From an uncultured Planctomycetia bacterium (GTDB taxonomy: Bacteria > Omnitrophota > Gorgyraeia > 1-14-0-20-64-10), in NCBI GenBank assembly GCA_964373055.1, contig CAYJTM010000002.1:1-53421 (forward strand): a stretch of DNA of 53,421 nucleotides, given 5' to 3'. The position numbers and the translations under genes were made by a program. Below, in pieces: positions 8,526 to 32,235 of the stretch. Position 1 is the first letter of the stretch; every line of letters starts with the position of its first letter. The notes beneath the pieces are model-generated. The model was not told where the DNA came from. It saw only the letters and a program-made list of their open reading frames with translations, and did not search any database.

Positions 8526-8604
8526 CATCTCCACCCATCCGCATGGCCCGCAGGCCTCGAGGGATCTCCGGCCCCTGATCGGCGCGCTGTTTGTCACCGC
8601 GTTC

Positions 8605-9390: not shown

Positions 9391-9399
9391 GGAGGGACA

Positions 9400-9582: not shown

Positions 9583-9588
9583 CGCGGC

Positions 9589-9677
9589 GTCATTGCGAGG
9601 CCCGCAGGGCCGAAGCAATCCCCCTGTGTCCCGAGGAGATTGCTTCGTCGTCCACTGCGTGGACTCCTCGCAATGAC
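9589..9677. repeat. nested palindromic intergenic repeat, copy A
   Basis: GTCATTGCGAGG-[GGCCCGCAGGGCC hairpin]-CGAAGCAATC-loop-GAGATTGCTTCG-[GTCCACTGCGTGGAC hairpin]-CCTCGCAATGAC. Confidence 0.9.
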
Positions 9678-12581: not shown

Positions 12582-13918
12582 ATTTCGTTCCAATCACTGA
12601 GAACGATCGCAAGGTGATGCTCCGCGCCATCGGCGTCGGCTCGTTCGAGGAGCTGATCCAGAGCGTCCCGAAGCTCATCCCCCGCGCCAAACTGAATCTC
12701 CCCGCCGCCCTCTCCGAACCGGAGTTGCTGCGCCACTGCGGCGAGCTGGCCGCGCTCAACCAGGCGCCGGAGCCGGAGCGCTGTTTCCTGGGGGCGGGCG
12801 CCTATTCCCATTGGACTCCCAGCGTGGTTCGCTACATCACCTCCCGAGGCGAGTTCCTGACCGCTTACACCCCTTACCAGGCCGAGGCCTCCCAGGGAAC
12901 CCTGCAGGCGATGTACGAGTTCCAGAGCTTGCTGTGCGAGCTGACCGGCATGGATGTGGCCAACGCTTCCCTCTACGAGGGGGCGAGCGCGCTCGCGGAG
13001 GCCTGCCTGCTCGCGGCCCGGGAGACCGGCCGCTCCCGCGTGGTGGTCGCGCAGAGCCTCCATCCGGAATACCGGCAGACGGTCCAGACCTACTTGAAGC
13101 AATCCGGGATCCGGGTTGTGCTGTTGGAGGCCCGCCACGGGGCCGTGGACCCGCAGGCCGCGGCCGCCCAGGTGGATTCCGGCACGGCGGCGCTGGTCGT
13201 GCAGATGCCCAACGCCTTCGGCTGCCTGGAATCTGTCGAGGAACTTTCCGCCCTCGCCCACCGCCGCGGCGCCCTCTTCATCTCCGTGATCAATCCCATC
13301 TCTCTGGGGATCCTGCGGCCTCCCGGGTCCTACGGGGCCGACATCGCCGTCGGGGAAGGGCAGCCCCTCGGGACCGACCTGAACTACGGCGGTCCTTACC
13401 TGGGGCTGTTCGCCTGCCGCAAGGAGCTCCTCCGCAAGGTCCCCGGCCGGATCGTCGGCATGACCAAGGACGCGCACGGCCGCCGCGGGTTCACGCTGAC
13501 GCTGCAGACGAGGGAACAGCATATCCGCCGGGCCAAGGCCACCTCCAACATCTGCACCAACGAAGCGATGATGGCGCTGGGAGCGGCCGTTTATTTGAGC
13601 TCAATGGGGAAAGAGGGGTTCCGGGAGCTGGCGCTGCAGAACCTCCAAAAGGCCCATTATTGCCGCGACCGGCTCACCGAGATCCCCGGCGTTCGCCAGA
13701 TCTTCCCGGGATCTTTCTTCAACGAATTCGCGCTGGAGATGCCGGTGGATCCGGAGCGCGTGAACCGAAACCTGTTGAAGGAAGGGATCGTCGGCGGGTT
13801 CCCGCTCAAGCGGTGGGATCGCAATCTCACGAACGGCTGGCTGCTCTGCGTCACCGAGATCCACAGTAAGGCCGCCATGGACCGGTTTGTCCAGGTGGTC
13901 CAGAGGTCCCTGAAATGA
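12557..13918 (+). CDS. gcvPA: glycine dehydrogenase (decarboxylating) subunit 1
   Basis: FVPITENDRKVMLRAIGV..., TAYTPYQAE...QG. TTG at 12578, overlapping the gcvH stop, is an alternative start. Confidence 0.95.
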   Translation: MGQRRRALNFVPITENDRKVMLRAIGVGSFEELIQSVPKLIPRAKLNLPAALSEPELLRHCGELAALNQAPEPERCFLGAGAYSHWTPSVVRYITSRGEFLTAYTPYQAEASQGTLQAMYEFQSLLCELTGMDVANASLYEGASALAEACLLAARETGRSRVVVAQSLHPEYRQTVQTYLKQSGIRVVLLEARHGAVDPQAAAAQVDSGTAALVVQMPNAFGCLESVEELSALAHRRGALFISVINPISLGILRPPGSYGADIAVGEGQPLGTDLNYGGPYLGLFACRKELLRKVPGRIVGMTKDAHGRRGFTLTLQTREQHIRRAKATSNICTNEAMMALGAAVYLSSMGKEGFRELALQNLQKAHYCRDRLTEIPGVRQIFPGSFFNEFALEMPVDPERVNRNLLKEGIVGGFPLKRWDRNLTNGWLLCVTEIHSKAAMDRFVQVVQRSLK

Positions 13919-15423
13919 CCCCACAGACGATGATCAAGGAGTCGGTTGAGCCGTCGAAGACCCCCCATTCCCCCGGCCGGCTGCTGGAGCCCCTGCTCAA
14001 AGAGCTCAGCGAACCGGGCCGGCGCGCCTTCACGCTGCCGCCGCTGGACGTGCCCAAGCAAAAACCGGAGAACCTGTTGCCCCCTTCCTTGATACGCAAG
14101 GATCCGGCGGATCTTCCGGAGCTCTCCGAGCGGGATCTGGTGAAACATTTCATGCGGCTGGCCCACCTGAACTTCTCCGGCGAAACCAATTTCTACCCGC
14201 TCGGCTCCTGCACGATGAAGTACAACCCGAAGATCAATGAGGAGATCGCCGCTCTGCCCGGTTTCGCCAAGCTGCACCCGTACTCCTCTGAGGAGAGCAG
14301 CCAGGGGATCCTGAAGCTCCTGTTCGAGACGGAGCGGCTGTTCCGGGAGATCCTCGGCATGGACGCGGTGACGCTGCAGCCGGCGGCCGGCGCCCAGGGG
14401 GAGCTGACCGCGCTGCTCATGGCGGCTGCGTTCCACGAGGCGAAGGCCAAGCCCCGCCGCAAGGTGGTGGTCCCCGATTCGGCGCACGGCACCAACCCGG
14501 CCAGCGCCGCCATCGCCGGTTTCGAGGTGGTGGAGGTTAAATCCAATTCTCGCGGAAGAGTCTCCCTTTCCGCTTTGGCGGCCGCCATTGACGAGGATGT
14601 GGCCCTCTTCATGATGACCAACCCCAACACGCTGGGCCTCTTCGAAGAGGAGGTCCTGGAGGTGACGGCCCTCGTCCATGAGAAGGGGGCCCTCATGTAC
14701 CTCGACGGCGCCAACATGAACGCGCTGCTGGGGCTGCTGCGCCCCGGAGACATGGGCTTCGACATGGTCCACGTGAACATCCACAAGACCTTCTCGATCC
14801 CGCACGGCAGCGGCGGCCCGGGCGGCGGCCCGGTCGGCATCAAGGCGGCCCTAAAGCCGTTCCTGCCGGGACCGATTGTCGTCGAAAAAGAGGGCGCCTA
14901 CCGCCAGGAATCGCCCGGCCCCCTCTCGATCGGCCGGGTCCGATCCTTCACGGGCAACGTCGGGGCGACGGTCCGCGCCTACGCTTACATCCGTTCGCTC
15001 GGGGCGGAGGGCCTCAAGCGGATCTCCGAGGGGGCGATCCTGAACGCCAATTACCTCAAGGCGCTGCTCAAGGACGTCCTGCCGATGGCGGTGGATGAGC
15101 ACTGCATGCACGAGTTCATCGCGACGGCCAAAGAGCTCAAGCAACGCCACGGCATCAAGGCGATGGACATCGCCAAGCGCCTGCTCGATTACGGTTTCTA
15201 CGCGCCGACGATCTGCTTCCCGCTGATCGTGGAGGAGGCCTTGATGGTGGAGCCCTCCGAGACGGAATCCCGGCAGACGCTGGAGCAGTTCGCCGAGGCG
15301 CTCAAGGCGATCGTTCGGGAAGCCAAGGAGATCCCAAGCCGGGTGCAGAGGGCGCCGCACCGGATGCCGGTGGCCCGGCTGGACGAGGTCCAGGCGGCGC
15401 GCGAACCGAACCTGCGGTGGTGA
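13915..15423 (+). CDS. gcvPB: glycine dehydrogenase (decarboxylating) subunit 2
   Basis: PLGSCTMKYNP..., the PLP-lysine region NIHKTFSIPHGGGGPG, and a 4-nt overlap with gcvPA. Confidence 0.95.
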   Translation: MTPQTMIKESVEPSKTPHSPGRLLEPLLKELSEPGRRAFTLPPLDVPKQKPENLLPPSLIRKDPADLPELSERDLVKHFMRLAHLNFSGETNFYPLGSCTMKYNPKINEEIAALPGFAKLHPYSSEESSQGILKLLFETERLFREILGMDAVTLQPAAGAQGELTALLMAAAFHEAKAKPRRKVVVPDSAHGTNPASAAIAGFEVVEVKSNSRGRVSLSALAAAIDEDVALFMMTNPNTLGLFEEEVLEVTALVHEKGALMYLDGANMNALLGLLRPGDMGFDMVHVNIHKTFSIPHGSGGPGGGPVGIKAALKPFLPGPIVVEKEGAYRQESPGPLSIGRVRSFTGNVGATVRAYAYIRSLGAEGLKRISEGAILNANYLKALLKDVLPMAVDEHCMHEFIATAKELKQRHGIKAMDIAKRLLDYGFYAPTICFPLIVEEALMVEPSETESRQTLEQFAEALKAIVREAKEIPSRVQRAPHRMPVARLDEVQAAREPNLRW

Positions 15424-16154
15424 CGGGGTCCGCTCCCTCCGCCATCGAGGCGCAAAACCTCTCCAAGCATTTTACCTGCTCGGTCGGTTGGCTCAAGCGC
15501 AAGGCCCTCTGGGCGCTCCGTGAGGTCTCCTTCTCCGTGGCGCCCGGCGAGGCGTTCGGCCTGATGGGTCCCAATGGTTCGGGCAAGTCCACGCTGCTGA
15601 GGATACTCAAGGCCTTTTTCCTGCCCACAGCCGGACGGGCCTGGGTCTTCGGGACTCCCACCTCCGATGAGGGCCGGATCAAGCCGCTGATCGGCGTGGT
15701 CCCGTCCTCCTCCCTTGGGTTCGCCGGACGGCTCAACGCGTTCCAGAACCTGGAATTTTACGCCGTTCTTCAGGATGTTCCGCCGGGACAACTGCGGGCC
15801 CGCGTGCAGGGCCTGCTGGATCTGGTCGGCCTTTCCGAGTTGGGCGGTCAGCCGGTGTGGACCTATTCGACGGGCCAACGCCAACGACTGGGCATCGCCC
15901 GAGCACTTTTGGCGGATCCTCCGGTTCTTCTTTTCGACGAACCCACCCGCGGCCTGGACCCCTGGAAAGCCAGAGAAATCCGGAAATGGATTCGCGAAGA
16001 GCTTCTTATCCGAAAAAAAAAGACGTTGCTGGTGGCTACCAACCAGACAGAGGATGTCCGGCAGCTCTGCGACCGGGCCGGCATCCTCGAGCACGGTCGC
16101 CTGGTCTGGCAGGGGACCGCGGCGGAGGCGGAATTTGCGCGCTCTCCGGGCTAG
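15417..16154 (+). CDS. ABC transporter ATP-binding protein (ABC-2 exporter type)
   Basis: Walker A GPNGSGKST, signature YSTGQRQR, Walker B LLFDEPTRGLD. Overlaps the gcvPB stop by 7 nt. Confidence 0.9.
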   Translation: MVTGSAPSAIEAQNLSKHFTCSVGWLKRKALWALREVSFSVAPGEAFGLMGPNGSGKSTLLRILKAFFLPTAGRAWVFGTPTSDEGRIKPLIGVVPSSSLGFAGRLNAFQNLEFYAVLQDVPPGQLRARVQGLLDLVGLSELGGQPVWTYSTGQRQRLGIARALLADPPVLLFDEPTRGLDPWKAREIRKWIREELLIRKKKTLLVATNQTEDVRQLCDRAGILEHGRLVWQGTAAEAEFARSPG

Positions 16155-16965
16155 GCTCCTCGGTGAGGCCAGGGTTGCCGTGGCCTTCATGAAGCGGGAA
16201 TTGCTGGGCACCGGCCCGTGGAATTACGGCTTGGAGTCCTTGAATGGTTTGGTTGGCCTGTTTCTCCTGCAGTTCTTCGCCCGGTCCTTCCACGGGGCCG
16301 TGGGCGCCTTCTCCCAGGGAATGGATTATTTCACCTTCGGGCTCATCGGGTTGGTGCTGGCCCAGTCCATGCTGCGCGGGCTCTCGATGTTTTCCGAGAG
16401 GATGAGATTCCTTATGCTCTCCGGCACTCTGGAGAGCATCTGGGTGACCCGGCGTTCTTTTCCGGTTTTGCTGCTGTACGATAGTCTCTGGAGCGTCCTT
16501 TTTTGGAGCTTCAACGGGGTTTTGCTCCTGATCTTCGGCGCCGGCGTGCTGGGAGCCCATCTCAACGCCTCGCAGATCGCCGCGGTTTGGGGGATTGGCC
16601 TGATCACCTTCTTGTCCATGGGCTCGCTGGGGCTGCTCTCCGCGGCCACTCTTATTGTGTTGGGTCACAAGGCCGTCCGGCTGTGGGCTCCGGTAGGTCC
16701 CGCGATCCTCTTGATCAGCGGCAGTTTCTTCACGGCAAGCGTTTTCCCCTCATGGATGCAGGGGGTCATCGGATGGATCCCCTTGACCCATGCCCTGAAG
16801 CTGGCCCGCGGAACGGTCCTGCCCTTGGACCCGGGCGCCGCCGCCCGGGCCTGGGGCGCCCTGATCGGGCAGGGGATCCTGCTGGCGCTGCTGGGTTGGG
16901 CGGCGCTCCGCTGGGCCGTGCGCCGGGCCCGGTCCGACGGCCGGTGGGCCGCCGTTGCGTTTTGA
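16135..16965 (+). CDS. ABC-2 family transporter permease
   Basis: Six predicted TM helices. TTG at 16135 or ATG at 16189 could be the start. The upstream part of ORF 15715..16965 overlaps the ATPase and is rejected. Confidence 0.75.
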   Translation: MRALRARLLGEARVAVAFMKRELLGTGPWNYGLESLNGLVGLFLLQFFARSFHGAVGAFSQGMDYFTFGLIGLVLAQSMLRGLSMFSERMRFLMLSGTLESIWVTRRSFPVLLLYDSLWSVLFWSFNGVLLLIFGAGVLGAHLNASQIAAVWGIGLITFLSMGSLGLLSAATLIVLGHKAVRLWAPVGPAILLISGSFFTASVFPSWMQGVIGWIPLTHALKLARGTVLPLDPGAAARAWGALIGQGILLALLGWAALRWAVRRARSDGRWAAVAF

Positions 16966-16973: not shown

Positions 16974-17603
16974 ATGAGGTCCTGGCGCCTGATTATTGAC
17001 CCGCCGGGCGATCCGGCGGGGAACATGGCAGCCGACGAGGGGATTGCCCGCTTGGCTGTTGAAGAGGCCCGCCCGATCCTCCGGATTTACCGCTGGGACC
17101 GTTCGGCTGTCTCTCTGGGCCGGCGGCAGAAGAGGGAAGAGCTTTCCCTCTCAGTGATGGAAAACCGGCTGCCGGTGGTTTGGCGTCTGACCGGCGGGGG
17201 AGCGGTGTTTCATCGCCCGGATGAATTGACCTACGCCTTTTCAGCTTCCCGGAGCTTGCTTCCTCCCGGTATCCCTTTAAGGGAGATTGCCTGCTTCCTG
17301 CATCGGCGATTGCGGGAGACGGCTGTTGCCCGGGGATGGGTGAACGGGGCGGATCTTTCGCTTGCCGGGGCCGATCCGGCCGGACCGGCGCCGTTCTGTT
17401 TCTCAGCGCCGGCCCGCGGCGATCTCATCTACCAGGGCAGGAAGGTAGCCGGTTCCGCTCTCCGGGTATGGAACGATAGGATCCTGCTCCAGGGTTACCT
17501 TCAAGGGTTGCCCCTCCGGTATGACCAGGCGCTTGAGGTGTTCGTGCTGGCCGCGGAAAGAGGTTTCAGGCATGAAGAAGCTTTACAGCTATCACATTCA
17601 TAA
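16974..17603 (+). CDS. lipoate-protein ligase family protein (BPL_LplA_LipB domain)
   Basis: NMAADEGIA...LRIYRW...AVSLGRRQ...RLTGGGAVFH..ELTY...GRKVAGSA. Sits downstream of the lipoyl-dependent gcv genes. Confidence 0.85.
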   Translation: MRSWRLIIDPPGDPAGNMAADEGIARLAVEEARPILRIYRWDRSAVSLGRRQKREELSLSVMENRLPVVWRLTGGGAVFHRPDELTYAFSASRSLLPPGIPLREIACFLHRRLRETAVARGWVNGADLSLAGADPAGPAPFCFSAPARGDLIYQGRKVAGSALRVWNDRILLQGYLQGLPLRYDQALEVFVLAAERGFRHEEALQLSHS

Positions 17604-18513
17604 CACCTTGTTCCAAAGTGAGTTTTCCATTCCGGCTTTGGCCGGTGCTTCGGTTGCTGGAGGGAATGCCCGGCAACGCGTCCGGTTCCGGGAAAGAAGG
17701 TTCCGGGTCGAGGCGCCGCGTCACGGATGGTTGCGTGTGCGGGGGCTTTTCTACTGGGCCCCTCCCCGCGGCCGGTTTGCCGTTCTCCGGTCCCCTTTCA
17801 TCGGCGATTTCAAAGTCAGCTTCTCGGAGAGGACCATTGATTGGAACCCGTCCCGGCAGAACTCCCGGCAACTGGCTTGCGTGATCGCGAGCGGGCGGGC
17901 TCTCAGTCTTCTTCTCCCTCACCTCAAACCCTGTCTTGTGTTGCACGCCGTGGGGCTCCAGCTCCGCCGAAAGGCGGTCCTGTTCGTCGCGCCAAGCGGC
18001 GGCGGGAAATCCACCTTGGCGGCGAGTTTTCTCAACGAAGGCCATCCGCTCGTTTGCGAGGACATCGCGGTCATCCGCAAGGGAAGGAACGGTTTCCTCT
18101 TGGAACCGGGAGTGCCCCAAATCCGGCTCTGGCCGCGGGCGGCCAGAAGGTTGTCTAAGCTCAGGAAGGGGAATCGTCTCTATCCCGAGACGGTCAAAGA
18201 GTTCTTCCTTCTGGATCGCCAGGGCTCGTGGCGGTTCAGGGCGTCGGCGGCGCCGGTGGCGGCGGTCTATTTCCTCTCCCGGAGCATGAAGAGGGAGGTC
18301 CGGATCGATCCGCTTAAACCCAAAGAGGCCCTCTTTCATTGCATGGATCACCGCCATTCCCCGCTTTCCCAAGGTTCCCGGATAGACGGCCGGCAGTTCG
18401 CGATTGCAAGCGAGCTGGTCCAGAACGTCCGGGTGAAGCGCTTGGTCTATCCCTCCGGTTTCGCCCGCCTTCCCGACGTCCGCCGGGCGGTTCTGGCCGA
18501 TTTGGATGCTTAG
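17572..18513 (+). CDS. HPr-kinase-related (HprK-like) P-loop kinase, lasso-peptide tailoring type
   Basis: P-loop FVAPSGGGKSTLAASF. Position at the head of the lasso cluster. Overlaps the upstream gene by 32 nt. Confidence 0.8.
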   Translation: MKKLYSYHIHNTLFQSEFSIPALAGASVAGGNARQRVRFRERRFRVEAPRHGWLRVRGLFYWAPPRGRFAVLRSPFIGDFKVSFSERTIDWNPSRQNSRQLACVIASGRALSLLLPHLKPCLVLHAVGLQLRRKAVLFVAPSGGGKSTLAASFLNEGHPLVCEDIAVIRKGRNGFLLEPGVPQIRLWPRAARRLSKLRKGNRLYPETVKEFFLLDRQGSWRFRASAAPVAAVYFLSRSMKREVRIDPLKPKEALFHCMDHRHSPLSQGSRIDGRQFAIASELVQNVRVKRLVYPSGFARLPDVRRAVLADLDA

Positions 18514-19786
18514 AGAGCCGGTTCTTAATCCGGAGGATCAGCTTCTTGTTTCTTGCGGGCGTCCCGCTTTTGATGAGGCGGTTTTCTCCCGGCTCTGTTC
18601 CGAAGTCCGCGATTGGGACGCCCTTCTCCGGAAGGCCGCCCGCCACCGCGTGATCCTTCGGCTCCACGCTTTCTTAAAACAAATAGGGGCCGGAGGAATC
18701 CTCGAACCGGCCGCCTGGCGGAAGATCGAGGAGGTTTCCCGCCTAACTCAATTCCGCGTCATGGCCCTGGAAGCGGAGCTTTCGGAAACCCTGCTGCCCC
18801 GGTTCAATCAGGCCGGTATCGAACCGCTCTTGCTCAAGGGTCTCGCCCTCAATCGGACGGTTTATGCCGGGAAACCTTGCCGCTCCTTTAAGGATCTCGA
18901 CCTGTTGATCCATCCCAATGAGGCGGGGCGGGCTCGCTCTGTCCTGGAAGGCCTGGGATATCAGGAAAAACAGGACTCTCATTTTCCCAGCCGCTGGCAC
19001 GAGCGGGTCCTTTCGCCGCTGCTTCCTCAGAATGCCATTTCTTTCTTTCATGCTGAGCGGAGGGTCCCCGTGGATCTCCATCTCGAACCTTTTGGGGAGG
19101 ATGCCCCGGTGCGCTGGGAACCGGACTGGCTCTGGAAGGAGGCGCGGCCCGTTCCGGTGGGGGATTCCTCCGCTTGGATCCCTCACCCGGACCGGCTCTT
19201 CCTGCATCTGCTGTTTCACCTGGCCAAGCACATCGGCCGGCGCCAGAACTTCTTGGGCTGGTACCTCGATCTGGATGAATGCCTCCGGTATCCGGGGGGA
19301 GTCGGGGAAGGGGATTTCTGCCGGGCGGAGATCGAGAAACAGCCGGTTGCGGGGGAAGCTTTTCAGATCCTGGGTTTTCTCCAAACACATTTTGAAACCC
19401 CGTTGTCTTTCCCGTTGAAGGAAGCCATCCGCGCGCGGAGGATTCGGCCTCTTCCTTTGGAGCAGCTTTTCCTTCCGGAAGAGACGCTGGACATCTCCAC
19501 GTTTTCCGACGGCGGCTGGATCGACCGCCGGGAAACCTTCTTTTCTTATTGGGACCGCGTGCCGGGCTGGGGGGCGAAGACCTGGTTCCTTTTGAGATGG
19601 ATTTTCCCGGACGGGTTCTACTTTGAAGCCAAATACCCTCCCTTCCGAACGCCAAGCCAGAAACTCCGGACCTATGCCAAACACTTCCGCGCCCTCCTTT
19701 ACAAGGGGTTTTATCTTCTGCGCTATTGCCTGGATCGGAAAAAGAGCTATACTGAACACCAGCATGCCTCCCAAAGTCCGGGTTGA
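18506..19786 (+). CDS. uncharacterised nucleotidyltransferase family protein (PF14907-like)
   Basis: EPLLLKGLALNRTVY...RSFKDLDLLIHPNEAGRARSVLEGLGY motif. Overlaps the kinase gene by 8 nt. Confidence 0.8.
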   Translation: MLREPVLNPEDQLLVSCGRPAFDEAVFSRLCSEVRDWDALLRKAARHRVILRLHAFLKQIGAGGILEPAAWRKIEEVSRLTQFRVMALEAELSETLLPRFNQAGIEPLLLKGLALNRTVYAGKPCRSFKDLDLLIHPNEAGRARSVLEGLGYQEKQDSHFPSRWHERVLSPLLPQNAISFFHAERRVPVDLHLEPFGEDAPVRWEPDWLWKEARPVPVGDSSAWIPHPDRLFLHLLFHLAKHIGRRQNFLGWYLDLDECLRYPGGVGEGDFCRAEIEKQPVAGEAFQILGFLQTHFETPLSFPLKEAIRARRIRPLPLEQLFLPEETLDISTFSDGGWIDRRETFFSYWDRVPGWGAKTWFLLRWIFPDGFYFEAKYPPFRTPSQKLRTYAKHFRALLYKGFYLLRYCLDRKKSYTEHQHASQSPG

Positions 19787-20051
19787 GTTCTCGAAGAAGG
19801 TGATGGGGAAGAAACTTGAGGGGGAGTGGGTTTTTCTCCATCTTGAGAACGGAAAATATTACGGCTTGAATGAGACCGGGAGTCTTGTCTGGGATGAGAT
19901 CAGGGAGAAGAAAGATCCTGAAGAGGCCGTCGCCCGCCTTCAAACCGTTTATCAATTGGAACGCCGCCAGGCGGAGAAAGACGTCCGGGATCTCTTGAAG
20001 GAGCTCGAGAGAGAGGGCCTGATCCGGGTTGAGCATTCCGAAAACGCTTAG
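19764..20051 (+). CDS. PqqD-family lasso peptide chaperone / RRE (B1)
   Basis: WVFLHLENGKYYGLNETGSLVWDEI, about 95 aa. ATG at 19764; an alternative ATG is at 19803. Confidence 0.85.
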   Translation: MPPKVRVEFSKKVMGKKLEGEWVFLHLENGKYYGLNETGSLVWDEIREKKDPEEAVARLQTVYQLERRQAEKDVRDLLKELEREGLIRVEHSENA

Positions 20052-20433
20052 GGCAGTTCTTCGATTCTCGCCGGCCGAACGAATCGCGATTCTACTCGCC
20101 TATGCATTCCTCCTGAAGGCCCGTCTTCTCCTTATCTTCTGTTCTCGGTCCGTGGTGGAGGAAGCTGTCTCCGCTTCGCCCTCGCTGCGCCGGCCCAGGA
20201 GCGGGTTTTCCCAAAGGGAGTTGGACGCTCTCTTCCGCATCGCCTGGCGATACCAGTTCCCATGGCCGAAATGCCTTGTCACCGCGCTGGCCCAGCGGTT
20301 TTTCCTTGCCCACTACGGCCATGCCGTCTCCTTCAAGATCGGCGTCCAAAAGAATGAGGGGAGATTCCAGGCCCACGCCTGGTGCGGAGACAGGGAACGT
20401 CCCTACGTTCCGCTGGAGGCGCCGAGCTCATGA
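20029..20433 (+). CDS. lasso peptide biosynthesis B2 protein (transglutaminase-like leader peptidase)
   Basis: FPWPKCLVTALAQRFFL...GV....RFQAHAW, giving a Cys/His catalytic pair. Confidence 0.9.
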   Translation: MSIPKTLRAVLRFSPAERIAILLAYAFLLKARLLLIFCSRSVVEEAVSASPSLRRPRSGFSQRELDALFRIAWRYQFPWPKCLVTALAQRFFLAHYGHAVSFKIGVQKNEGRFQAHAWCGDRERPYVPLEAPSS

Positions 20434-22316
20434 GCGGGATCGGCGGGGTTTTCCACGCGGACGGCTCCCCGGCGGACCGGGCGCTGCTGGAAAGAATGCG
20501 GGAGATCATCGATCACAGGGGCCCCGACGGCGCCGGCTTCTGGATGGACGGGAATGTCGGTCTTGTCCACCGGCTTCTCCGCAACACCGAGGAATCGGTT
20601 TCCGACCAGCAGCCGATGACAAACGGCCGCGGCCTCTGGATCACGGCCGACTGCCGGATCGATAACCGGGAGGAGCTCAAGCAATCCTTCGAATCAAAAG
20701 GCCTCTGGAGGGAAATGCAGAAGCTCTTCAACGGCCGGCCGATTCCCGATTCCGCTTTTATCCTCTTTGCTTATGAACTTTGGGGGGAAGATTCCCCTAA
20801 CCACCTCTTGGGCGACTTCGCCTTCGCCGTTTGGGATCAGCCCCGCCAAGCACTCTTCTGCGCCCGGGATCAAATTGGGATTAAACCTTTCAACTACCAC
20901 TGGAACGGAAGGAAGTTTCTCTTCGGGACAGAGATGAAGCAGGTTTTTCAGGATCCCAGCCTTTCCAGAGACCTAGACCTCTATTATCTTTCGGATCTGC
21001 TTGCGATGAACTTCCCGAACCGGGAACAGACCCCCTATGAGGCGGTCCGGAGACTGCCGCCGGCCCATTGCCTGAAGATTCGCGGGGGAAACTTTAACGT
21101 CAAACGTTACTGGCATTGGAACCCGGATTCCGAATCTTTGTCGAAATCAAGCTGCGAGGAAAACGCCGGTGTTTTTCTTTCCCTATTCACACAGGCGGTC
21201 CAGGCAAGGTTGCGGACGGTTTCGGGATACCGAACAGGTTCCTTGCTGAGCGGCGGCCTCGATTCCTCATCCATTGTGTCGGTCGCGGCGCTAGCGGGGG
21301 ATTCGGAAGCTGGTTTTCCGGTATTCAGCCTCTCCTGCCCGGAAGCCAATCCGGAGTATCAACTCAAAAACTATGATTTCGCGGATGAAGCCGTTTACCG
21401 GAAAGCGCTGATTGAAAAATACCGATTGGAAGCCCATGAGATAGAGATCGCGGGCCGAAGCCCCTTCGAAAATTTAAAAAAAAATATCTGGCATCAGGAA
21501 ATCCCCCTCTTTTCTCCTGGTTTCAACTCTTACGGACCCCTCTGCCGGGCTATCCAAGAGGCCGGCGTGCGGATCCTTTTGGACGGAAACGGCGGAGATG
21601 AAATGTTTCACGTTCGCCCGCCCCGTTCGTTCAAAGAACTCCGTGGACGCGCTCGGATGACTGCTTGGATCCCTGAAAGGATAAAGGCTTTTTACCGCCG
21701 AGGTTTCCGGGATGTCCTGCCGCGCGCTATACGAAAGGGGTGGGCTAAAAAGTTTTCCTTGAGGAGCCGGGTGCTCCGGGATTTCGGTTGGGATTTCCCC
21801 TCCCGAGGGTCTTCTTCTTTTGGTATCTTGCTTTTATTAAAGAGGGGTTATCATGCGACCTGGCTCGAGACGGTGGACCGAGGAGCCGCTGCCGCCCGAT
21901 ACGAAGTCCGGTTTCCCTTTCTTGACAGGAGACTCCTGCGGTTTTCCGCCACGTTGCCGTTGGACCAAAAAGTCCGGGGAGAGGTTAAGAAAGTTTTATT
22001 GCGTCAAGCGTTAAGGGGGCATCTTCCCCCCGCTACGTGCGGCCGCTTAAAAAAGTCGGAATATAGTCCAGCTGTGCGCGTAAGCCTCGAGCGGTACGCC
22101 CAAGAACCCATTCGGGCCCTGTTCAGAAACCCTCATTTTCTTGTTCGGGAAATGGTCGATGTTGAGAAGCTGAGGAAGGCCAGTCCTGTGGGCAGTTGGT
22201 TTTTTTGGCATGTCTTGAGCCTCGATCAGTGGCTCAAAAACAGGGAAGATTTTTTTGAAAAACCCAAGGAGAGTTTCTATGAAACAGAGGTCGCTTCCTC
22301 GTCAAGCGCGGGATAG
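20430..22316 (+). CDS. asparagine-synthetase-like lasso cyclase (C)
   Basis: MSGIGGVFHADG N-terminus and a SLLSGGLDSSSIV PP-loop. ATGA overlap with B2. Confidence 0.9.
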   Translation: MSGIGGVFHADGSPADRALLERMREIIDHRGPDGAGFWMDGNVGLVHRLLRNTEESVSDQQPMTNGRGLWITADCRIDNREELKQSFESKGLWREMQKLFNGRPIPDSAFILFAYELWGEDSPNHLLGDFAFAVWDQPRQALFCARDQIGIKPFNYHWNGRKFLFGTEMKQVFQDPSLSRDLDLYYLSDLLAMNFPNREQTPYEAVRRLPPAHCLKIRGGNFNVKRYWHWNPDSESLSKSSCEENAGVFLSLFTQAVQARLRTVSGYRTGSLLSGGLDSSSIVSVAALAGDSEAGFPVFSLSCPEANPEYQLKNYDFADEAVYRKALIEKYRLEAHEIEIAGRSPFENLKKNIWHQEIPLFSPGFNSYGPLCRAIQEAGVRILLDGNGGDEMFHVRPPRSFKELRGRARMTAWIPERIKAFYRRGFRDVLPRAIRKGWAKKFSLRSRVLRDFGWDFPSRGSSSFGILLLLKRGYHATWLETVDRGAAAARYEVRFPFLDRRLLRFSATLPLDQKVRGEVKKVLLRQALRGHLPPATCGRLKKSEYSPAVRVSLERYAQEPIRALFRNPHFLVREMVDVEKLRKASPVGSWFFWHVLSLDQWLKNREDFFEKPKESFYETEVASSSSAG

Positions 22317-22446
22317 GGGTAAAAAGGGAAGGTACATTCCCCCCTCTCTGGTTCGTTATGGGAATCTAAAGAAAATCACGCTAGGGCTATCGCCGGAGGG
22401 CCCTGAGGACAATCCAACTCCTTGGATCGGGACGATGTATTCGTAA
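22279..22446 (+). CDS. lasso peptide precursor (A): 35-aa leader plus 20-aa core GLSPEGPEDNPTPWIGTMYS
   Basis: AAGGAGA RBS lies 7 nt before the ATG. The leader YIPPSLVRYGNLKKITL fits YxxPxLxxxGxxxxxTx exactly. Core has Gly1 and Glu8/Asp9. C-terminal Ser. Confidence 0.8.
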   Translation: MKQRSLPRQARDRGKKGRYIPPSLVRYGNLKKITLGLSPEGPEDNPTPWIGTMYS

Positions 22447-22468
22447 CAAGCCTGTCCAGCAATAAGGC

Positions 22469-23755
22469 ATGAAAGTTCTTTACACGCCTTGCCGTTTTAT
22501 ACCGCGCCCGGTCGGGGGCGGAGATATTCATGTCCAATCCCAAGCGGAAGTTTTAAGAGAGCGAGGGGTGACGGTGGTGGGGGCTTTCCCGGGCGCGTCC
22601 CCTGCTGAGGCTGTGAAGGATTTCGCGGGAATTCTTGAGAAGGAACGGCCTGACATCGTCCATTTTTTTAGCTTCAAGCCGGATCTTTCCGTTCCATTCC
22701 TTCGGGAGGCGAAGCGGCGGGGACTCCCCACCGTTTTTAGCTACATCAGCGCGGAGACGGGCTGCGGGCGGAAAACCCTCTTGCGGTGGGGAAAAGAGCC
22801 CTGCTCAAGCATTTTTAATCTGGATCTTTGCGTTTCCTGCGCACTCCACGGTCACGGCCTGCCGCGGATTGTTTCCGGGCTGGTAGGACGAACTCCGGTG
22901 AGGATCGGTTCCTCTCTGAGAAGGATGAAGATACTCGGAAAAGCAGGAACAGCCCTTCGGATGCGGGCGCAGATTCAGGCGAGCCAGCAATCCTTCAAAG
23001 CTTTTCTTGACGGGGTGGATCATGTTGTCGCTTCAGCGGAATGGGCGAGGGTTCTTCTGCTTAGAAACGGGGTTCAGCCGGATAAGATTACTTTGTCCCG
23101 CGTTGGAATCCCTCACAATGTACCCGCTCCGTCCGTTCAAGCGAAGGAGATCACGTTGCCGCTTCGCGTCGCGATGGTGGGGCGGCTACACCCGCAAAAA
23201 GGGTTTCATATTCTCATTCCTGCTTTGCGTCGGGAGCCCAGGCTTAAGATTAAATTAGATATTTTTGCCTCGTTTGCTCAGGATGTCGGGTCACGCGGGT
23301 TAAGATTTCTGCAGAAGTTCTCCGGAAATGATTTCCGCATCAGATTCCATCCCTTGCCGATGCCCATAGATAAGCTCTCCAGCCTTTTGAAAGATTATGA
23401 CGCGCTTGCGGTGCCTTCGCAGTGGCTTGAGACGGGACCTCTCGTCGTCTTGGAATCCTTTGCCGCGGGAACACCGGTGATCGGCTCTCGCTGGGGGGGG
23501 ATTTCAGAATTGATAAAGGACGGCGTGAATGGCCTGCTTGTGGATTCGCCGCACCGGATTGAATCTTGGCAAGCGGTCTTACGAAGAATTTGCGCTGAGC
23601 CCAATCTCCTTGAGGATTTGAGAAAAAATATTCTCCCTCCCCGTACGATGAATGAGACGGCCGAAGAAATAGAGGGCGTCTATCGCCGGCTGCTTTTTGG
23701 AAGAAAGCCGTTATCAACGAGTTCTTGCAGCAGCGCGGCGCCGGCCACCCGATGA
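22469..23755 (+). CDS. glycosyltransferase, GT-B fold (GT4-like)
   Basis: C-terminal GSRWGGISELIKDGVNGLLVD (EX7E-type region). Starts 23 nt after the precursor stop. Confidence 0.85.
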   Translation: MKVLYTPCRFIPRPVGGGDIHVQSQAEVLRERGVTVVGAFPGASPAEAVKDFAGILEKERPDIVHFFSFKPDLSVPFLREAKRRGLPTVFSYISAETGCGRKTLLRWGKEPCSSIFNLDLCVSCALHGHGLPRIVSGLVGRTPVRIGSSLRRMKILGKAGTALRMRAQIQASQQSFKAFLDGVDHVVASAEWARVLLLRNGVQPDKITLSRVGIPHNVPAPSVQAKEITLPLRVAMVGRLHPQKGFHILIPALRREPRLKIKLDIFASFAQDVGSRGLRFLQKFSGNDFRIRFHPLPMPIDKLSSLLKDYDALAVPSQWLETGPLVVLESFAAGTPVIGSRWGGISELIKDGVNGLLVDSPHRIESWQAVLRRICAEPNLLEDLRKNILPPRTMNETAEEIEGVYRRLLFGRKPLSTSSCSSAAPATR

Positions 23756-24930
23756 CCTTTCTGATTCCAATGAGCCCCATCGCCCAATCTTAATTTCCCT
23801 TGGATGGATTCTTCCGAAACGATTCGATCGGGAATGCTGGCGATAAACGGGATGCCCGTTTGCGCGAAGATTTTCCCAAAGTGGTCTCTCGAGGGGCCTT
23901 CGCTGACGGTAAAGGCGACCATCGGTGTTTCGCCGACCCTGTCTTTAATCCTGCCGATAATCTGCCGCGTTACCTCAAAGGATTCTCGATAGGGCCCGAA
24001 GTTGAGGCCTTGTTTTTCGATGTCATTTTCTACCGTGTAAATTTTACCGATCTTGGCAAGGCGAACAAGGTTTTGTCGAGACATAACGATTAAGCGATAG
24101 GCCAGCCTTGAGCGGAGCGCCAAGAAATAAACGGTTTCGCCGAAATTTCCAGGATACCGATACGACACCGTGCCCTTTGTGTCGTAATAAGGCCGGACCA
24201 TCGGGTGATTCTCAAAGCAGCTCTTAGATCCTAATTCCCAATGATTATTAATGAAATCATTGGCGCACACTTGCAGCAGGATCAGATCCGGTTTAATTCT
24301 ATCCAGGTATTTGTCGATCACAAAAAATTCCTGCAGCGTTCCGTACCCCGTCCCCCCGTAAACAAAGAGTTCTGCGCCGAGTTCGTTTTTAAGCGTTTCG
24401 TAATACATGGCGGGGCTGCCTCCCGCCGTAAAGGAATCTCCTACAATAAAGATCTTGAGCCGTTTTGTTTCCGGGTCGCCGAAATATTTTTTTCCGGACC
24501 AGCCCAAGAGGTCATCTCGGTAGAGGCTAATGGATTTGTGCAGCGGGATATCCCAGCGGAATGAATCGTAGAAACGAACGAAGAGTTCTCCTCCCACGCA
24601 GAGCGCTAAGAGGGTTGACATGAAAACCGCCGCGCGGACCCGGAACCCTACCTGCCGGCGCCCCCTGTGTTTTAAAAGATAGACGACGAGGAAACCCAGG
24701 GCCAGCATCCATGCGGTCCAGAAAAGAAAAGAAAACCACAGGGTATCCCCGATTCTCAAATAGGTCTCCAGCGGAGAGGAGGTGTTTTGATCAATGAACC
24801 GGTTGAGGACGCTGAGAGATTGCCTGCGGTAGATGGATCCGATGAGGAAACGGCCCCAAAGAGGGTAGGCCGTGATAAGAACGAAGCCGAAGACGAGGAA
24901 GGATAATCGGATCAGTCCCGCTGGTTTCAT
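23680..24930 (-). CDS. membrane-anchored SGNH/GDSL-like hydrolase or acyltransferase
   Basis: N-terminal TM helices, block I IFIVGDSFTAGG, and a C-terminal DGAHWNQKGH. ATG at 24930 (ORF track start 24990). Confidence 0.7.
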   Translation of the reverse strand: MKPAGLIRLSFLVFGFVLITAYPLWGRFLIGSIYRRQSLSVLNRFIDQNTSSPLETYLRIGDTLWFSFLFWTAWMLALGFLVVYLLKHRGRRQVGFRVRAAVFMSTLLALCVGGELFVRFYDSFRWDIPLHKSISLYRDDLLGWSGKKYFGDPETKRLKIFIVGDSFTAGGSPAMYYETLKNELGAELFVYGGTGYGTLQEFFVIDKYLDRIKPDLILLQVCANDFINNHWELGSKSCFENHPMVRPYYDTKGTVSYRYPGNFGETVYFLALRSRLAYRLIVMSRQNLVRLAKIGKIYTVENDIEKQGLNFGPYRESFEVTRQIIGRIKDRVGETPMVAFTVSEGPSRDHFGKIFAQTGIPFIASIPDRIVSEESIQGKLRLGDGAHWNQKGHRVAGAALLQELVDNGFLPKSSRR

Positions 24931-25068
24931 CGTTGCGCCCCCCTGCGAAATCCCTTTTCCTCCCCGTGCTTCCCGGGGTATCCTCTTCATGGGCAGTTCT
25001 TTCTTTGCTGATGTCCGTCAACTGTTTCCAGGATAACCCTAAAGCCGGCGGATTTCATCCTGGAAAAG

Positions 25069-25287
25069 ATGGAACCGGAGGAAAAGTTGAGGCGGGTCCT
25101 TCTGAAAGTGGGCCACTTCCAGTCCTCTCTTTTGCTCTGCCTGATCTACCTCGTGCTTTGGGTTCCTGTTGGGCTACTGTCGTTCCTGTTCGCGGACTGG
25201 CTCCGCCGGCGCAGGCCGGCCGCGTCGGCCTGGCTTCCTCGGAATCCCCGCTTGAACCTGCCAGAGCACGCGAAAGAGCCCTACTGA
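25069..25287 (+). CDS. small membrane protein preceding carbamoyltransferase (SxtJ-like position)
   Basis: 72 aa with one or two TM helices. Ends 2 nt before the carbamoyltransferase ATG. The family assignment is uncertain. Confidence 0.45.
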   Translation: MEPEEKLRRVLLKVGHFQSSLLLCLIYLVLWVPVGLLSFLFADWLRRRRPAASAWLPRNPRLNLPEHAKEPY

Positions 25288-25289
25288 GG

Positions 25290-26999
25290 ATGTACCTTCT
25301 CGGCCTTTCCTGTTTCTACCACGATGCAGCGGCGGTGATCTTGCGCGACGGGCTGCTGATCGCCGCAGCGGAGGAGGAACGTTTCTCCCGAAAGAAGCAT
25401 GACAGCGGATATCCGCAGCAGGCGATCCGGTTTTGCTTGGCCCGAGCAGGGATCACGGCGCAGGACCTCGACGGCGTTGTTTTTTATGAGAAGCCCCTCG
25501 TTAAGTTTGAGCGAATCATCAAGACCACCCTGCAAACGATCCCCCGGTCCGCCAAGCTCTTCCGATCCGCTATGGGCAGCTGGCTCGTGGATAAGCTTTG
25601 GATCGAGGAGATCATCCGGGCGGATTTGGGGGTTTCGCCGGATAGGATCTTTTTTGCCGACCACCATCAGTCCCACGCCGCCAGCGCTTTCTACTGCTCC
25701 CCCTTTGATTCCGCCGCTGTGCTGACCATCGACGGTGTAGGGGAGTGGGCCTGCGGGTCGATCGGCTTAGGGCAGGGTTCCCGCCTGACCCAGAGCCGGG
25801 AGATCCGCTTCCCGCATTCCCTGGGGCTTCTCTACAGCACTTTCACGGCCTTTCTGGGGTTTGAGGTGAACGAGGGGGAGTACAAGGTAATGGGGATGGC
25901 CGCCTACGGGATCCCCCGGTACACCGAGGAGGTGCGGAAGATCCTAAAGGTGTACGCGGACGGATCCCTCTGGCTGGATCTGAGATACTTCGCGTTCCAC
26001 CATTCCACCGACCGCAGCTTCAGCCGAAAGTTCACGGAGGTGTTCGGCCCTCCCCGAGACCCGAAACGGTCGGAGGACCTGGACCCGAAATACTGCGACA
26101 TCGCTGCCAGTATCCAGAAGGTGACCGAGGAGGTGGTCGTGGCGATGGCGCGCCAGGCCTTGCGGGAGACGGGCCAGGAGCGTCTCTGCTACGCGGGAGG
26201 GGTGGCGCTCAACAGCGTGGCGAACTGGCGGATCCTGCAGGAGACTCCGGTAAAGGACCTGTTCATCCAACCGGCAGCGGGGGACTCCGGTGGGGCCTTG
26301 GGGGCCGCCCTCTACCTCTATCACCATGTTCTGGGGAACCCCCGGCGGTTCGTGATGGATCATGCCTACTGGGGAGCGGACAGCTCGCCGGCTCAGGTGG
26401 AGGAGTTTCTGCGGTCGGAGAATATCCGGTATGAGCCGCTTGGGCGGCTGGATGCGCTGGTGGACCGGACCGTCGGCCTGCTGACGGAGGGCAAGGTGGT
26501 GGGATGGATGCAGGGAAGGTTCGAGTGGGGGCCCCGGGCGTTGGGCAACCGCTCGATTTTAGCGGATCCCAGACGCGCGGAGATGAAGGAGATCGTCAAC
26601 CGGAAGATCAAGTTCCGGGAACCGTTCCGTCCGTTTGCCCCTTCTGTCCATTCGGAAGCCGTGGGGGATTATTTCGAATTGCCCGAGAATGCCCGATGGC
26701 CGGCCCGGTTCATGCTGGTTGCGCCTCCCGTGAGGGCGCAGCGGCGGTCGGAGATCCCGGCGGTGACGCATGTGGATGGGACCGGACGGGTGCAATGGGT
26801 GGAGGAGTCGGAGAATCCGCTCTACGGTCGGCTGATCCGGCGATTTGGGGAGGCAACGGGGGTTCCGGTGGTGCTCAACACCTCTTTCAATCTGAAAGGC
26901 GAGCCGATCGTGAACACGCCGGCCCAGGCCCACTCCGCATTCATTCGCTCCGATATGGACGGCCTGGTGATGGCTCACTGCCTGGTGACGAAGGAATGA
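25290..26999 (+). CDS. carbamoyltransferase (NodU/CmcH family)
   Basis: MYLLGLSCFYHDAAA..., HHQSHAASAF, GGVALNSVAN, NTSFNLKGEPIV. The N-extension from 24933 is rejected. Confidence 0.92.
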   Translation: MYLLGLSCFYHDAAAVILRDGLLIAAAEEERFSRKKHDSGYPQQAIRFCLARAGITAQDLDGVVFYEKPLVKFERIIKTTLQTIPRSAKLFRSAMGSWLVDKLWIEEIIRADLGVSPDRIFFADHHQSHAASAFYCSPFDSAAVLTIDGVGEWACGSIGLGQGSRLTQSREIRFPHSLGLLYSTFTAFLGFEVNEGEYKVMGMAAYGIPRYTEEVRKILKVYADGSLWLDLRYFAFHHSTDRSFSRKFTEVFGPPRDPKRSEDLDPKYCDIAASIQKVTEEVVVAMARQALRETGQERLCYAGGVALNSVANWRILQETPVKDLFIQPAAGDSGGALGAALYLYHHVLGNPRRFVMDHAYWGADSSPAQVEEFLRSENIRYEPLGRLDALVDRTVGLLTEGKVVGWMQGRFEWGPRALGNRSILADPRRAEMKEIVNRKIKFREPFRPFAPSVHSEAVGDYFELPENARWPARFMLVAPPVRAQRRSEIPAVTHVDGTGRVQWVEESENPLYGRLIRRFGEATGVPVVLNTSFNLKGEPIVNTPAQAHSAFIRSDMDGLVMAHCLVTKE

Positions 27000-27178
27000 G
27001 CCGCCGGATTGATTCTCTGGCAGGACGGTTCCGGGTGGTCAGGTCGATTTTCCGTTTTCTCTGGCGGGAGCGTCTCTGGTGGATGATCCCGCTAATGGCG
27101 GTCCTCTTGATATTCGGAGCTCTGCTGCTCTTTGCCCAACAGAGCGCTTTGGCCCCGTTCATCTACACCCTCTTTTGA
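26996..27178 (+). CDS. DUF5989-family small membrane protein
   Basis: ATGA overlap with the carbamoyltransferase. C-terminal ...QSALAPFIYTLF is typical of this family. Confidence 0.8.
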   Translation: MSRRIDSLAGRFRVVRSIFRFLWRERLWWMIPLMAVLLIFGALLLFAQQSALAPFIYTLF

Positions 27179-27201
27179 ACACCGCGCCAAACCCGTTGGT
27201 T

Positions 27202-27861
27202 TCATTGTTGCGTCGCCCCTGTCTTTAGGAACGACAGGAAGCTCGGTTCAGAGCGGAACCACCCCGCGAAAGCTGTCCTTGGAAAGCTTCCGGTCACCCG
27301 GGTCACCCGGTGCTCCAGCTTATTGCTGATTCGGAAAAGGACGGCATCTCCGGAAGCGATGTTGGCCACTTCGCTCAAAGTTTTTTTTGAATTCTGATCT
27401 CGAATCTGAAGGACCCCTCCCTCATAGGGTTCCCGGCCGAGGTTGATCGAAAATCCGAACATTCTGTGCTTGCCCACATCATTGTGCCAATCCAGCTGTC
27501 CTTCGGAAGGGATAAGTTGGTAGAGCCTTCCTGTGAAATTTCGGATTGGACCGGAGCCCGCGATCTTTTCAATCACTCGGAAGAGGGCCGGATCATTCAG
27601 CAAAAAGAAAAAAAATCCAACGGTCCGGCTGTCTTCGAAATACAATTCTTCCCCGATCTGTTTGTAAGATTTTTTTGTGCCGCTTAATTCCTTAATCTGA
27701 CCCTGAAGAGTTTGGAGGAGGGGGAGGGAAAGGAACTGAGGGATCTGAACGCAATGATCGCGTTGAAAGGTTCTGGAGAAATCGCGCAGGTTTTTCTTCG
27801 CGGGCAGAAAGAAACTTCCGTCTTCTTGAACTTGCAAGGAAACCAAAGAAGCCCTCAGCAT
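27202..27861 (-). CDS. 2OG-Fe(II) oxygenase superfamily protein
   Basis: DWHND...(x)...LEHRV, a His-x-Asp...His facial triad pattern in a cupin-like region. Confidence 0.65.
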   Translation of the reverse strand: MLRASLVSLQVQEDGSFFLPAKKNLRDFSRTFQRDHCVQIPQFLSLPLLQTLQGQIKELSGTKKSYKQIGEELYFEDSRTVGFFFFLLNDPALFRVIEKIAGSGPIRNFTGRLYQLIPSEGQLDWHNDVGKHRMFGFSINLGREPYEGGVLQIRDQNSKKTLSEVANIASGDAVLFRISNKLEHRVTRVTGSFPRTAFAGWFRSEPSFLSFLKTGATQQ

Positions 27862-27928
27862 TACGGCCGACGGGGATTCATGAAGTCATTTTACCGGAGG
27901 AATAGGAGGAAGGCGATTCAAAAATAAA

Positions 27929-28045
27929 CTCGGGCGACGACCTACTCTTCCGTTCAGTTACTCAGGCTTTACCATCGGCCCTGGGAGGCGTAACGGTCGT
28001 GCCCGGAATAGGGAAGGCATTCCAGTTGGGACCAATTTGGGTTGA
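27929..28045 (-). pseudogene. degenerate 5S rRNA-like segment (3' about 100 nt), overlapping the sulfatase-like gene 3' end
   Basis: The minus strand reads ...GGTCCCAACTGG..TTCCCTATTCCGGGCACGACCGTTACGCC..GGCCGATGGTA..GGAAGAGTAGGTCGTCGCCCGAG, resembling the 5S consensus. The 5' helix I partner and helix IV pairing are absent. Confidence 0.3.
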
Positions 28046-30890: not shown

Positions 30891-31007
30891 ATAAAGAAAT
30901 ACCGACGCGAGCTCGATGAGGTCAACCCTCTTTCGCGGTTGCCACCCCTTAACCGGTGTCAGGGCAATGTTCCCTCCTCGCCTTCAGTTTGAACTCTCGT
31001 CACCCTG

Positions 31008-32153: not shown

Positions 32154-32235
32154 GTATTGTATTATAGATATTTATTTCTATTTTGCAATCAACAAAACCG
32201 AGGATCTGACGCGGCTACTGTGGGGGGTGAGGGAG

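Follow-up and report, generated by a model that had tools for sequence, protein, structure and literature searches.

We analyzed a 53,421-nucleotide (nt) stretch of DNA, hereafter the window, from an uncultured Planctomycetia bacterium (contig CAYJTM010000002.1 of GenBank assembly GCA_964373055.1, positions 1 to 53,421). Positions 17572-23755 of the window are a real, intact lasso-peptide gene cluster of the kinase/nucleotidyltransferase type, and the cluster is very likely active. It probably represents a class II lasso system of the paeninodin/pseudomycoidin type that occupies a conserved chromosomal site behind the genes gcvT-H-PA-PB-lplA and carries lineage-specific tailoring additions. 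An initial annotation, made from the sequence alone, had proposed seven co-directional lasso genes at this locus in the order K-N-B1-B2-C-A-GT. Its assignment of the locus to lasso peptides is supported by hidden Markov model matches, by a leader that fits the recognition motif exactly, and by what has been published on the chemistry of the kinase (K) and of the nucleotidyltransferase-family protein (N) (PMC9266682, PMC6993621).

Gene content, precursor, and chromosomal site

All seven open reading frames (ORFs) lie on the + strand of 17572-23755, as proposed, and their junctions overlap or abut. The first encodes K (17572-18513), an HprK-like P-loop kinase whose predicted substrate is the precursor, phosphorylated by analogy at its C-terminal Ser. 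It is followed by N (18506-19786), a PsmN-like protein of the PF14907 nucleotidyltransferase family, and by the two halves of a split B protein: B1 (19764-20051), a PqqD-like recognition element (RRE) for leader binding, and B2 (20029-20433), a transglutaminase-like Cys protease for leader removal. The ATP-dependent, Asn-synthetase-like cyclase C (20430-22316) would form the macrolactam (isopeptide) bond, A (22279-22446) is a 55-residue precursor, and the last gene (22469-23755) encodes a GT-B, retaining-type family 4 glycosyltransferase (GT4) that is a probable tailoring enzyme. Consecutive genes overlap by 8 nt (K/N), 23 nt (N/B1 and again B1/B2), 4 nt (B2/C), and 38 nt (C/A), leaving the 22-nt gap between A and GT4 as the sole non-overlapping junction. 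Every one of the motifs highlighted earlier (VAPSGGGKST, DLDLLI, PKCL, AHAW, and SGGLDSS) was present.

Profile searches agreed with these identities. B1 matched PF05402 (PqqD, E = 3.5e-19) and the lasso PqqD model NF033536 (62.8 bits), and B2 matched PF13471 (E = 9e-14) and the lasso B2 model NF033537 (53.9 bits vs. a cutoff of 33). C matched Asn_synthase (PF00733, E = 2e-43) and contains the PP-loop SGGLDSS. Its best NCBIfam match was the lasso cyclase model NF033535, with a score (424 bits) that falls under the 525-bit cutoff but is far over that of the asparagine synthase model. Contigs 100% identical to the window, each covering 3.3 to 16.3 kb, were found in three independent metagenome assemblies, which rules out an assembly or sequencing artefact.

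The precursor consists of a leader (residues 1-35) and a predicted 20-residue core, GLSPEGPEDNPTPWIGTMYS, that starts at G36 after cleavage at Leu35. It matched the leader model NF033521 (lasso_leader_L3) with 20.8 bits against a 19-bit cutoff, and the leader holds YxxPxLx3Gx5Tx in exact register (Y19, P22, L24, G28, and T34, corresponding to Y-17, P-14, L-12, G-8, and T-2). When all six frames of the window were considered, A was the sole ORF matching [YFW]xxPx[LIVM]x3Gx5Tx. The sequence AAGGAG stands 7 nt 5' of its ATG.

An orthologous precursor is encoded on a metagenome contig, L004, whose C protein is 73% identical to that of the window. Its core, GTALSGSLDNPDPWIGTFYS, shares G1, D9, and a DNPxPWIGTxYS tail with the core of the window, and T17, Y19, and S20 are conserved. 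The ring was assigned as a nine-membered Gly1-Asp9 macrolactam with an 11-residue tail because Asp9 is the only acidic residue conserved between the two cores. As the initial annotation had observed, the precursor ends in Ser (...TMYS), and the same is true of its L004 counterpart (...TFYS). Between these two loci, GT4 and C have the same synonymous divergence (dS = 0.76) and are under purifying selection, with ratios of nonsynonymous to synonymous divergence (dN/dS) of 0.22 and 0.23, respectively, compared with 0.74 for the precursor. A protein search for precursor homologues recovered the query alone, and a full-text literature search with the core strings returned no paper. On the basis of these two negative results only, the 20-residue core appears not to be known from earlier reports, which matches the prior impression that it did not resemble a recognised lasso peptide.

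Relatives of C comprised L004 at 73% identity, approximately 30 metagenome proteins at 42-51%, and then proteins at 37% or less, and a scan of reference-genome contigs with C returned only relatives at 27-33% identity. We examined the genomic contexts of seven relatives (L004 and L014-L019), six of which belong to the 42-51% clade. The L004 contig does not include K. The initial annotation had considered it unusual for the precursor to come last among the biosynthetic genes, but A follows C in 7/7 of these relatives; the pseudomycoidin (psm) cluster is also written psmCA... (PMC6993621).

Two arrangements were found within the 42-51% clade. Genes are ordered N-B1-B2-C-A-K in L014-L017, where they are accompanied by a divergent ABC-2/ACT module and by a variable set of methyltransferase, sulfotransferase, or amine-oxidase genes. 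The order gcvT-gcvH-gcvPA-gcvPB-lplA-B1-B2-C-A-K is seen in L018 and L019, which is the chromosomal site of the window, and their gcvPB is 84-86% identical to the window's. The location behind the glycine-cleavage and lipoylation operon is therefore real, as the initial annotation held, although its conservation in L018 and L019 means that it is not an oddity. Flanking housekeeping proteins are 66-87% identical to those of the window, as compared to 35-50% for the lasso proteins. The conserved site and diverged lasso proteins imply an old, vertically kept site with fast-diverging lasso content. At this one site, turnover of the tailoring genes and of the core peptide is far faster than that of the flanking housekeeping genes, and the glycine-cleavage-linked lasso locus is a useful example of clusters for peptides made on the ribosome and modified after translation (RiPPs) diversifying in place. 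Genes for OEP and AsmA suggest that the host is diderm.

Candidate tailoring enzymes and the proposed pathway

Searches with K as a single sequence gave weak matches below cutoff (PF07475 at E = 0.0016 and TIGR04352 at 31 bits). In contrast, eight homologous kinases from lasso clusters, combined into a profile, matched structures of HPr kinase/phosphatase (1ko7 with E = 6e-6, as well as 3tqf and 1jb1) over the region containing the His, P-loop, and Asp-Asp elements. Hence, the kinase assignment made earlier stands at the level of the homologue profile but not at that of the single-sequence models. K is 35-37% identical to kinases of related lasso clusters and retains H125, GGGKST (with the P-loop K146), and D164. 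These belong to a His-Lys-Asp-Asp set of four residues reported to be essential (PMC9266682). PadeK, ThcoK, and PsmK act on the linear precursor, whose C-terminal Ser they phosphorylate (PMC9266682, PMC6993621). By analogy, Ser20 is most likely the phosphorylated residue here, which we regard as reasonable rather than certain.

N matched PF14907 with E = 3.8e-40, as the initial annotation had anticipated, and contains KDLDLLI with the DLD (Asp-x-Asp) metal-binding motif. It is 40-45% identical to the N proteins of L014-L017. In pseudomycoidin biosynthesis, the PF14907 protein PsmN is required for the attachment of one or two hexoses to the phosphate, and the authors left open whether PsmN is the transferase or the maker of a substrate for a host glycosyltransferase (PMC6993621).

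GT4 matched PF00534 (Glycos_transf_1, E = 1.3e-21) and, in its N-terminal part, PF13579 (E = 3e-11), and its best match in the PDB was MshA (3c4q, E = 3.5e-13). The EX7E motif is intact, with E-TGPLVVL-E unchanged in 118-120 of the 120 family members. The start at 22469 is backed by a conserved N-terminus in L004, and public gene calls begin 35 codons later. GT4 lies on the same strand as the lasso genes, no terminator-like or unusually stable structure was found in the spacer between A and GT4, and a convergent gene beyond GT4 marks the end of the operon. L004 keeps the order C-A-GT4, a 23-nt spacer (~87% identical), and the GT4 N-terminus, with the proteins being 73% identical. Two other clusters with K and N carry a glycosyltransferase of another family directly after N, which is a GT2 in L027 and GT47-like in L050.

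The L027 (13045-18549) and L050 (708-9006 and 16610-17821) lasso clusters are both co-directional within glycan-assembly sets that contain GT2, GT4, Wzy-like, and GT47-like genes, and L027 has a second Asn-synthetase-like gene after its precursor.

A further feature of GT4 is a four-cysteine motif (C99, C112, C121, and C124, within residues 99-124) found in 120/120 members of its subfamily, which suggests that the N-terminal domain carries an inserted metal-binding element. We rejected this motif as a peptide-specific feature of GT4, as it is invariant across the family, including those members checked that belong to polysaccharide clusters.

The initial annotation omitted from its description of the cluster a 2-oxoglutarate (2OG)-Fe(II) oxygenase encoded on the - strand (27202-27861; PF13640, E = 1.4e-10), which is a candidate precursor hydroxylase. 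In L004, the corresponding gene is convergent with GT4 and overlaps its 3' end; it is 79% identical by tblastn with a dN/dS of 0.23. In the window, a 3.5-kb block that is absent from L004 parts the oxygenase from GT4. Along its entire length, the oxygenase also shares 35% identity (E = 3e-43) with a 2OG-PqqD fusion protein in L032, and the HxD...H iron ligands are conserved. An experimental precedent for its proposed activity is CanE, an Fe/2OG hydroxylase that acts on a linear lasso precursor with the help of B1 (summary in PMC9266682). We give the oxygenase an even chance of being a tailoring enzyme of the peptide.

Two observations can be added regarding the surroundings of these oxygenases. 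The L032 fusion (9024-10004), an oxygenase with a C-terminal PqqD/RRE domain, has its gene placed between those of B2 and C in a kinase/N lasso cluster, in which a PF14907-methyltransferase fusion (13175-14899) and a further PF14907 gene also occur. The 3.5-kb block of the window (23695-27222) encodes an SGNH/GDSL membrane protein (-), a 66-residue ORF, a carbamoyltransferase, and a DUF5989 protein. Within it, the carbamoyltransferase gene has a GC content at third codon positions (GC3) of 0.79 vs. 0.57-0.60 in its neighbours, and a 22-nt imperfect direct repeat occurs near the edges of the block, at 23926 and 27206.

Two genes upstream of the lasso genes, between gcvPB and lplA, lies a pair of + strand ABC-2 transporter genes encoding a DrrA-like ATPase (15417-16154; TIGR01188 drrA, 169 bits), which is a probable exporter or immunity subunit, and a DrrB-like permease (16135-16965; a weak TIGR01247 drrB match and a faint PF01061 match in public annotation). 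At that position, L018 and L019 lack such a pair. The window ATPase shares 56% identity with the one encoded directly after K in the L019 cluster, compared with 31-34% with others in the sampled loci, and the permease is 45% identical to the L019 permease over the 75 residues of it that are visible. We counted the ABC-2 pair (15417-16965) as cluster-linked because of the 56% match to the in-cluster ATPase of L019. By analogy, it has a probable function in export or immunity, and the earlier statement that the cluster has no ABC exporter was wrong in substance. The divergent ABC/ACT module that neighbours L014-L017 was considered as an orthologue of the pair and rejected, as the ATPases are only 32-34% identical.

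Taken together, these genes suggest the following pathway. B1 would bind the leader motif Y-17xxP-14xL-12, K would phosphorylate the linear precursor, most likely at Ser20, and N would be needed for the first hexose on the phosphate. The co-transcribed GT4 would add or extend the sugar from a nucleoside diphosphate (NDP)-sugar, and the 2OG-Fe(II) oxygenase may hydroxylate the precursor. B2 would cleave after Leu35, with Thr at position -2, and C would join Gly1 to the side chain of Asp9 to give a 9-residue ring threaded by the 11-residue tail. The ABC-2 pair could export the product or protect its producer. Within this scheme, the gene identities, the leader motif and cleavage site, the conserved ring acceptor, the operon structure, purifying selection, and synteny come from the sequence analysis itself. 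The chemical steps are drawn by analogy, including the phosphorylation site, what N does, the substrates of GT4 and the oxygenase, and export.

Several observations weigh against this pathway. The first Asp of the His-Lys-Asp-Asp set in K is E163, an Asp-to-Glu change in the Asp-Asp motif that the initial annotation had missed; DD is present in 31/33 homologues and ED in only one other (L046). In kinase-bearing relatives (L014-L019, L027, and L050), the last precursor residue is C, Q, H, G, K, or V, which implies that a terminal Ser is not the sole possible acceptor. GT4 is paired with lasso genes in two related lineages only, the window and L004, and the association is absent from the 42-51% clade in the contexts of L014-L019. 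When 91 other C-homologue loci were searched with a GT4-family profile, there was one K-positive match, in which the GT4s belong to an upstream glycan cluster. All sampled GT4 relatives at 42-45% identity (3/3), the nearest ones beyond the window and L004, lie in O-antigen-like clusters, and GT4 opens a low-GC3 block (22469-32235) with envelope-type genes that is absent from the syntenic L018. Finally, the oxygenase is on the opposite strand at a distance of 3.4 kb from GT4.

The non-Ser precursor termini also conflict with the published description of the C-terminal Ser of kinase-bearing clusters as "extremely conserved". Kinases of the non-Ser clusters may use other acceptor residues.

The block opened by GT4 suggests a rival explanation for this gene. 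Past the lasso genes, synteny with L018 is lost until a tRNA-Leu gene (32235-32317, - strand), such that 22469-32235 represents ~9.8 kb of extra sequence. Its GC3 is mostly 0.54-0.66, as compared to 0.80-0.89 in the flanks, and it encodes an SGNH membrane protein, a trio of carbamoyltransferase genes, a sulfatase-family membrane protein, the halves of a chromate transporter, and an AAA_14/DUF4143 ATPase. Accordingly, the lasso cluster might end at the precursor, with GT4 being part of a separately acquired envelope-glycan block, inserted between the lasso cluster and tRNA-Leu, and acting on a polysaccharide or a lipid-linked glycan. The 2OG oxygenase would then be a member of this block as well. 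The O-antigen-like surroundings of the GT4 relatives fit this explanation, as do the genes downstream of GT4, which are typical glycan-modifying types, and the near absence of GT4-family genes from other sampled kinase-type lasso loci. However, GT4 shares the strand of the lasso genes, starts 22 nt past the precursor without an intervening terminator, and is succeeded by a convergent gene. The C-A-GT4 order and the spacer have been kept in L004 at 73% protein identity, whereas the neighbouring 3.5-kb block has not. An att-type repeat of the tRNA-Leu end, which we sought in order to place GT4 in or out of an integrated element, was not found, nor was an integrase among the proteins scanned. Since the lasso genes themselves have lowered GC3 (0.54-0.74), they show no compositional separation from GT4, and GC3 does not discriminate between membership of GT4 in the lasso operon and in the downstream block. 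Other K/N clusters having a glycosyltransferase directly after N also argue against a separate glycan block, and we regard it as a doubtful, though serious, explanation. Conversely, we slightly favor GT4 acting on the peptide. The initial annotation had described GT4 as both additional and dedicated to the cluster: the gene and its 22-nt gap were confirmed, whereas its dedication is no more than plausible in view of the O-antigen-like relatives and the block missing from L018.

It is also conceivable that GT4 and the oxygenase form a pair that works independently of phosphate, in which hydroxylation of a core residue such as the conserved Pro11 or Pro13, Asp9, or Asn10 is followed by O-glycosylation there or at a conserved Thr17 or Tyr19. 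They are the only additions specific to the subclade of the window and L004, they are direct, overlapping neighbours in L004, PF13640 is a prolyl-hydroxylase-like family, and the DNPxPW segment is conserved in both cores. We nonetheless consider this pairing improbable, as the literature consulted contained no hydroxy-residue glycosylation of a lasso peptide, the adjacency is limited to two related lineages, the acceptor residue is putative, and a phosphate-linked sugar is already predicted by K and N. Decay of the tailoring system is more improbable still. It would require that the Asp-to-Glu change had inactivated K, leaving an undecorated lasso product and N and GT4 without a peptide substrate. 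Although E163 does replace the first Asp of a motif reported to be essential (PMC9266682) that is DD in nearly all homologues, Glu retains the carboxylate, and ED recurs in the independent homologue L046. Moreover, the K ORF is full-length with its His and P-loop intact, and its sequence is identical across independent assemblies.

Returning to phosphate-linked glycosylation of the peptide, a more specific division of labor can be envisioned, albeit one that we hold to be unlikely. The PF14907 protein would prime or activate the phospho-Ser peptide, and a dedicated glycosyltransferase (GT4 here, GT2 in L027, and the GT47-like enzyme in L050) would complete the phosphate-linked glycan. If true, the cluster would be a natural two-enzyme form of a step that Escherichia coli host enzymes may have supplied for pseudomycoidin, and it would answer what Zyubko et al. 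had left unresolved. As a more speculative extension, hydroxylation by a 2OG oxygenase might yield a phospho-glyco-hydroxylated lasso peptide. The location of some K/N clusters (L027 and L050) in glycan-assembly loci with Wzy-like genes hints that the peptide might even be attached to a larger glycan.

Other variable regions of the window

Beyond the lasso locus, the far side of tRNA-Leu also contains variable DNA. The segment 32404-33833 carries an AbiEii toxin gene (PF08843, E = 3.6e-27) and, ahead of it, a gene for a possible AbiEi-like antitoxin (a weak PF17194 match below cutoff), and the pair is absent from the syntenic L018. The existence of L018-absent DNA on both sides of tRNA-Leu implies that variable DNA has been inserted at both flanks. 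Farther along, a GT2 gene and a 480-residue ORF without a Pfam match (35255-37365) are situated between a HAMP-HD gene and a conserved 292-residue gene. Both have lowered GC3, and L018 is empty in that gap.

Upstream of the cluster, the region 4836-7609 encodes an outer-membrane efflux protein and a multicopper oxidase that has a heavy-metal-binding domain, and both L018 and L019 lack these genes. A cation-efflux gene (8527-9390) is likewise missing in L018 and has an 87%-identical counterpart in L019. Located by a conserved heavy-metal P-type ATPase gene, these genes look like a variable metal-resistance patch. A transfer-messenger RNA (tmRNA) gene (38863-39271) that directly follows smpB is, by comparison, ~90% conserved in L018. 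Its predicted tag peptide, AKNMVKGIAPVVPMRPAVVPMALAA, is unusually long.

Comparison with known lasso systems

To our knowledge, only two kinds of glycosylated lasso peptides have been characterised, pseudomycoidins and davasins. The class and tailoring logic of the cluster in the window are already known, and earlier work had noted glycosyltransferases that co-occur with K/N clusters. In this context, the window offers a good natural-product lead rather than a new kind of system. With a kinase, a PF14907 protein, and a recognisable glycosyltransferase all encoded in a single operon, the cluster offers a compact setting in which to study how PF14907 proteins install phosphate-linked sugars, and its value is raised further by the linked oxygenase and by an unreported, possibly triply tailored 20-residue core.

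Among characterised systems, the pseudomycoidin psm cluster of Bacillus pseudomycoides (Zyubko et al. 2019, PMC6993621) is the closest, followed by paeninodin. The window and psm have in common an HprK-like kinase, a PF14907 protein, split B1 and B2, C, and a Ser-terminal precursor after C. By analogy, the expected chemistry would also be shared, namely a (poly)phosphate on the C-terminal Ser carrying an N-dependent hexose. In contrast to psm, the gene order in the window is permuted (K-N-B1-B2-C-A), the upstream two-gene ABC-2 pair takes the place of a fused D-type ABC transporter, and a recognisable GT4 is present in addition, together with a linked 2OG oxygenase. The core is also unrelated to that of pseudomycoidin, the host is apparently diderm, and the kinase has ED instead of DD. 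The paeninodin pade cluster of Paenibacillus dendritiformis, described by Zhu et al. (2016; summary in PMC9266682), is also a class II, kinase-tailored cluster with a split B, and its linear precursor is phosphorylated on the C-terminal Ser, like the type of product predicted for the window. It is a Firmicute system with a D-type exporter and with neither an N gene nor a glycosyltransferase, in which respects it differs from the window.

The remaining precedents each resemble one aspect of the cluster. Davasins, from the igt cluster of Streptomyces davaonensis (PMC11912497), share with the window's predicted product the glycosylation of a lasso peptide by an in-cluster glycosyltransferase. However, IgtG is an unrelated polysaccharide-deacetylase/GT2 fusion that acts on a Ser of the mature lasso without a kinase or N (PMC11912497), whereas the window has a GT4 with K and N. 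The CanE enzyme of canucin A is, like the candidate in the window, a lasso-linked Fe/2OG oxygenase (summary in PMC9266682); the oxygenase of the window belongs to PF13640 and is encoded on the opposite strand. Glycosyltransferases have also been noticed in silico next to kinase-type lasso genes, in Butyrivibrio K/N clusters with GT2 genes (PMC7533575) and in a Stanieria kinase cluster (PMC6993621). Both resemble the window in having a glycosyltransferase beside K (and N) near lasso genes. They differ from it in that their glycosyltransferases are GT2/EpsH-type or unspecified, and none belongs to this GT4 subfamily; these clusters are uncharacterised and come from Firmicutes and cyanobacteria.

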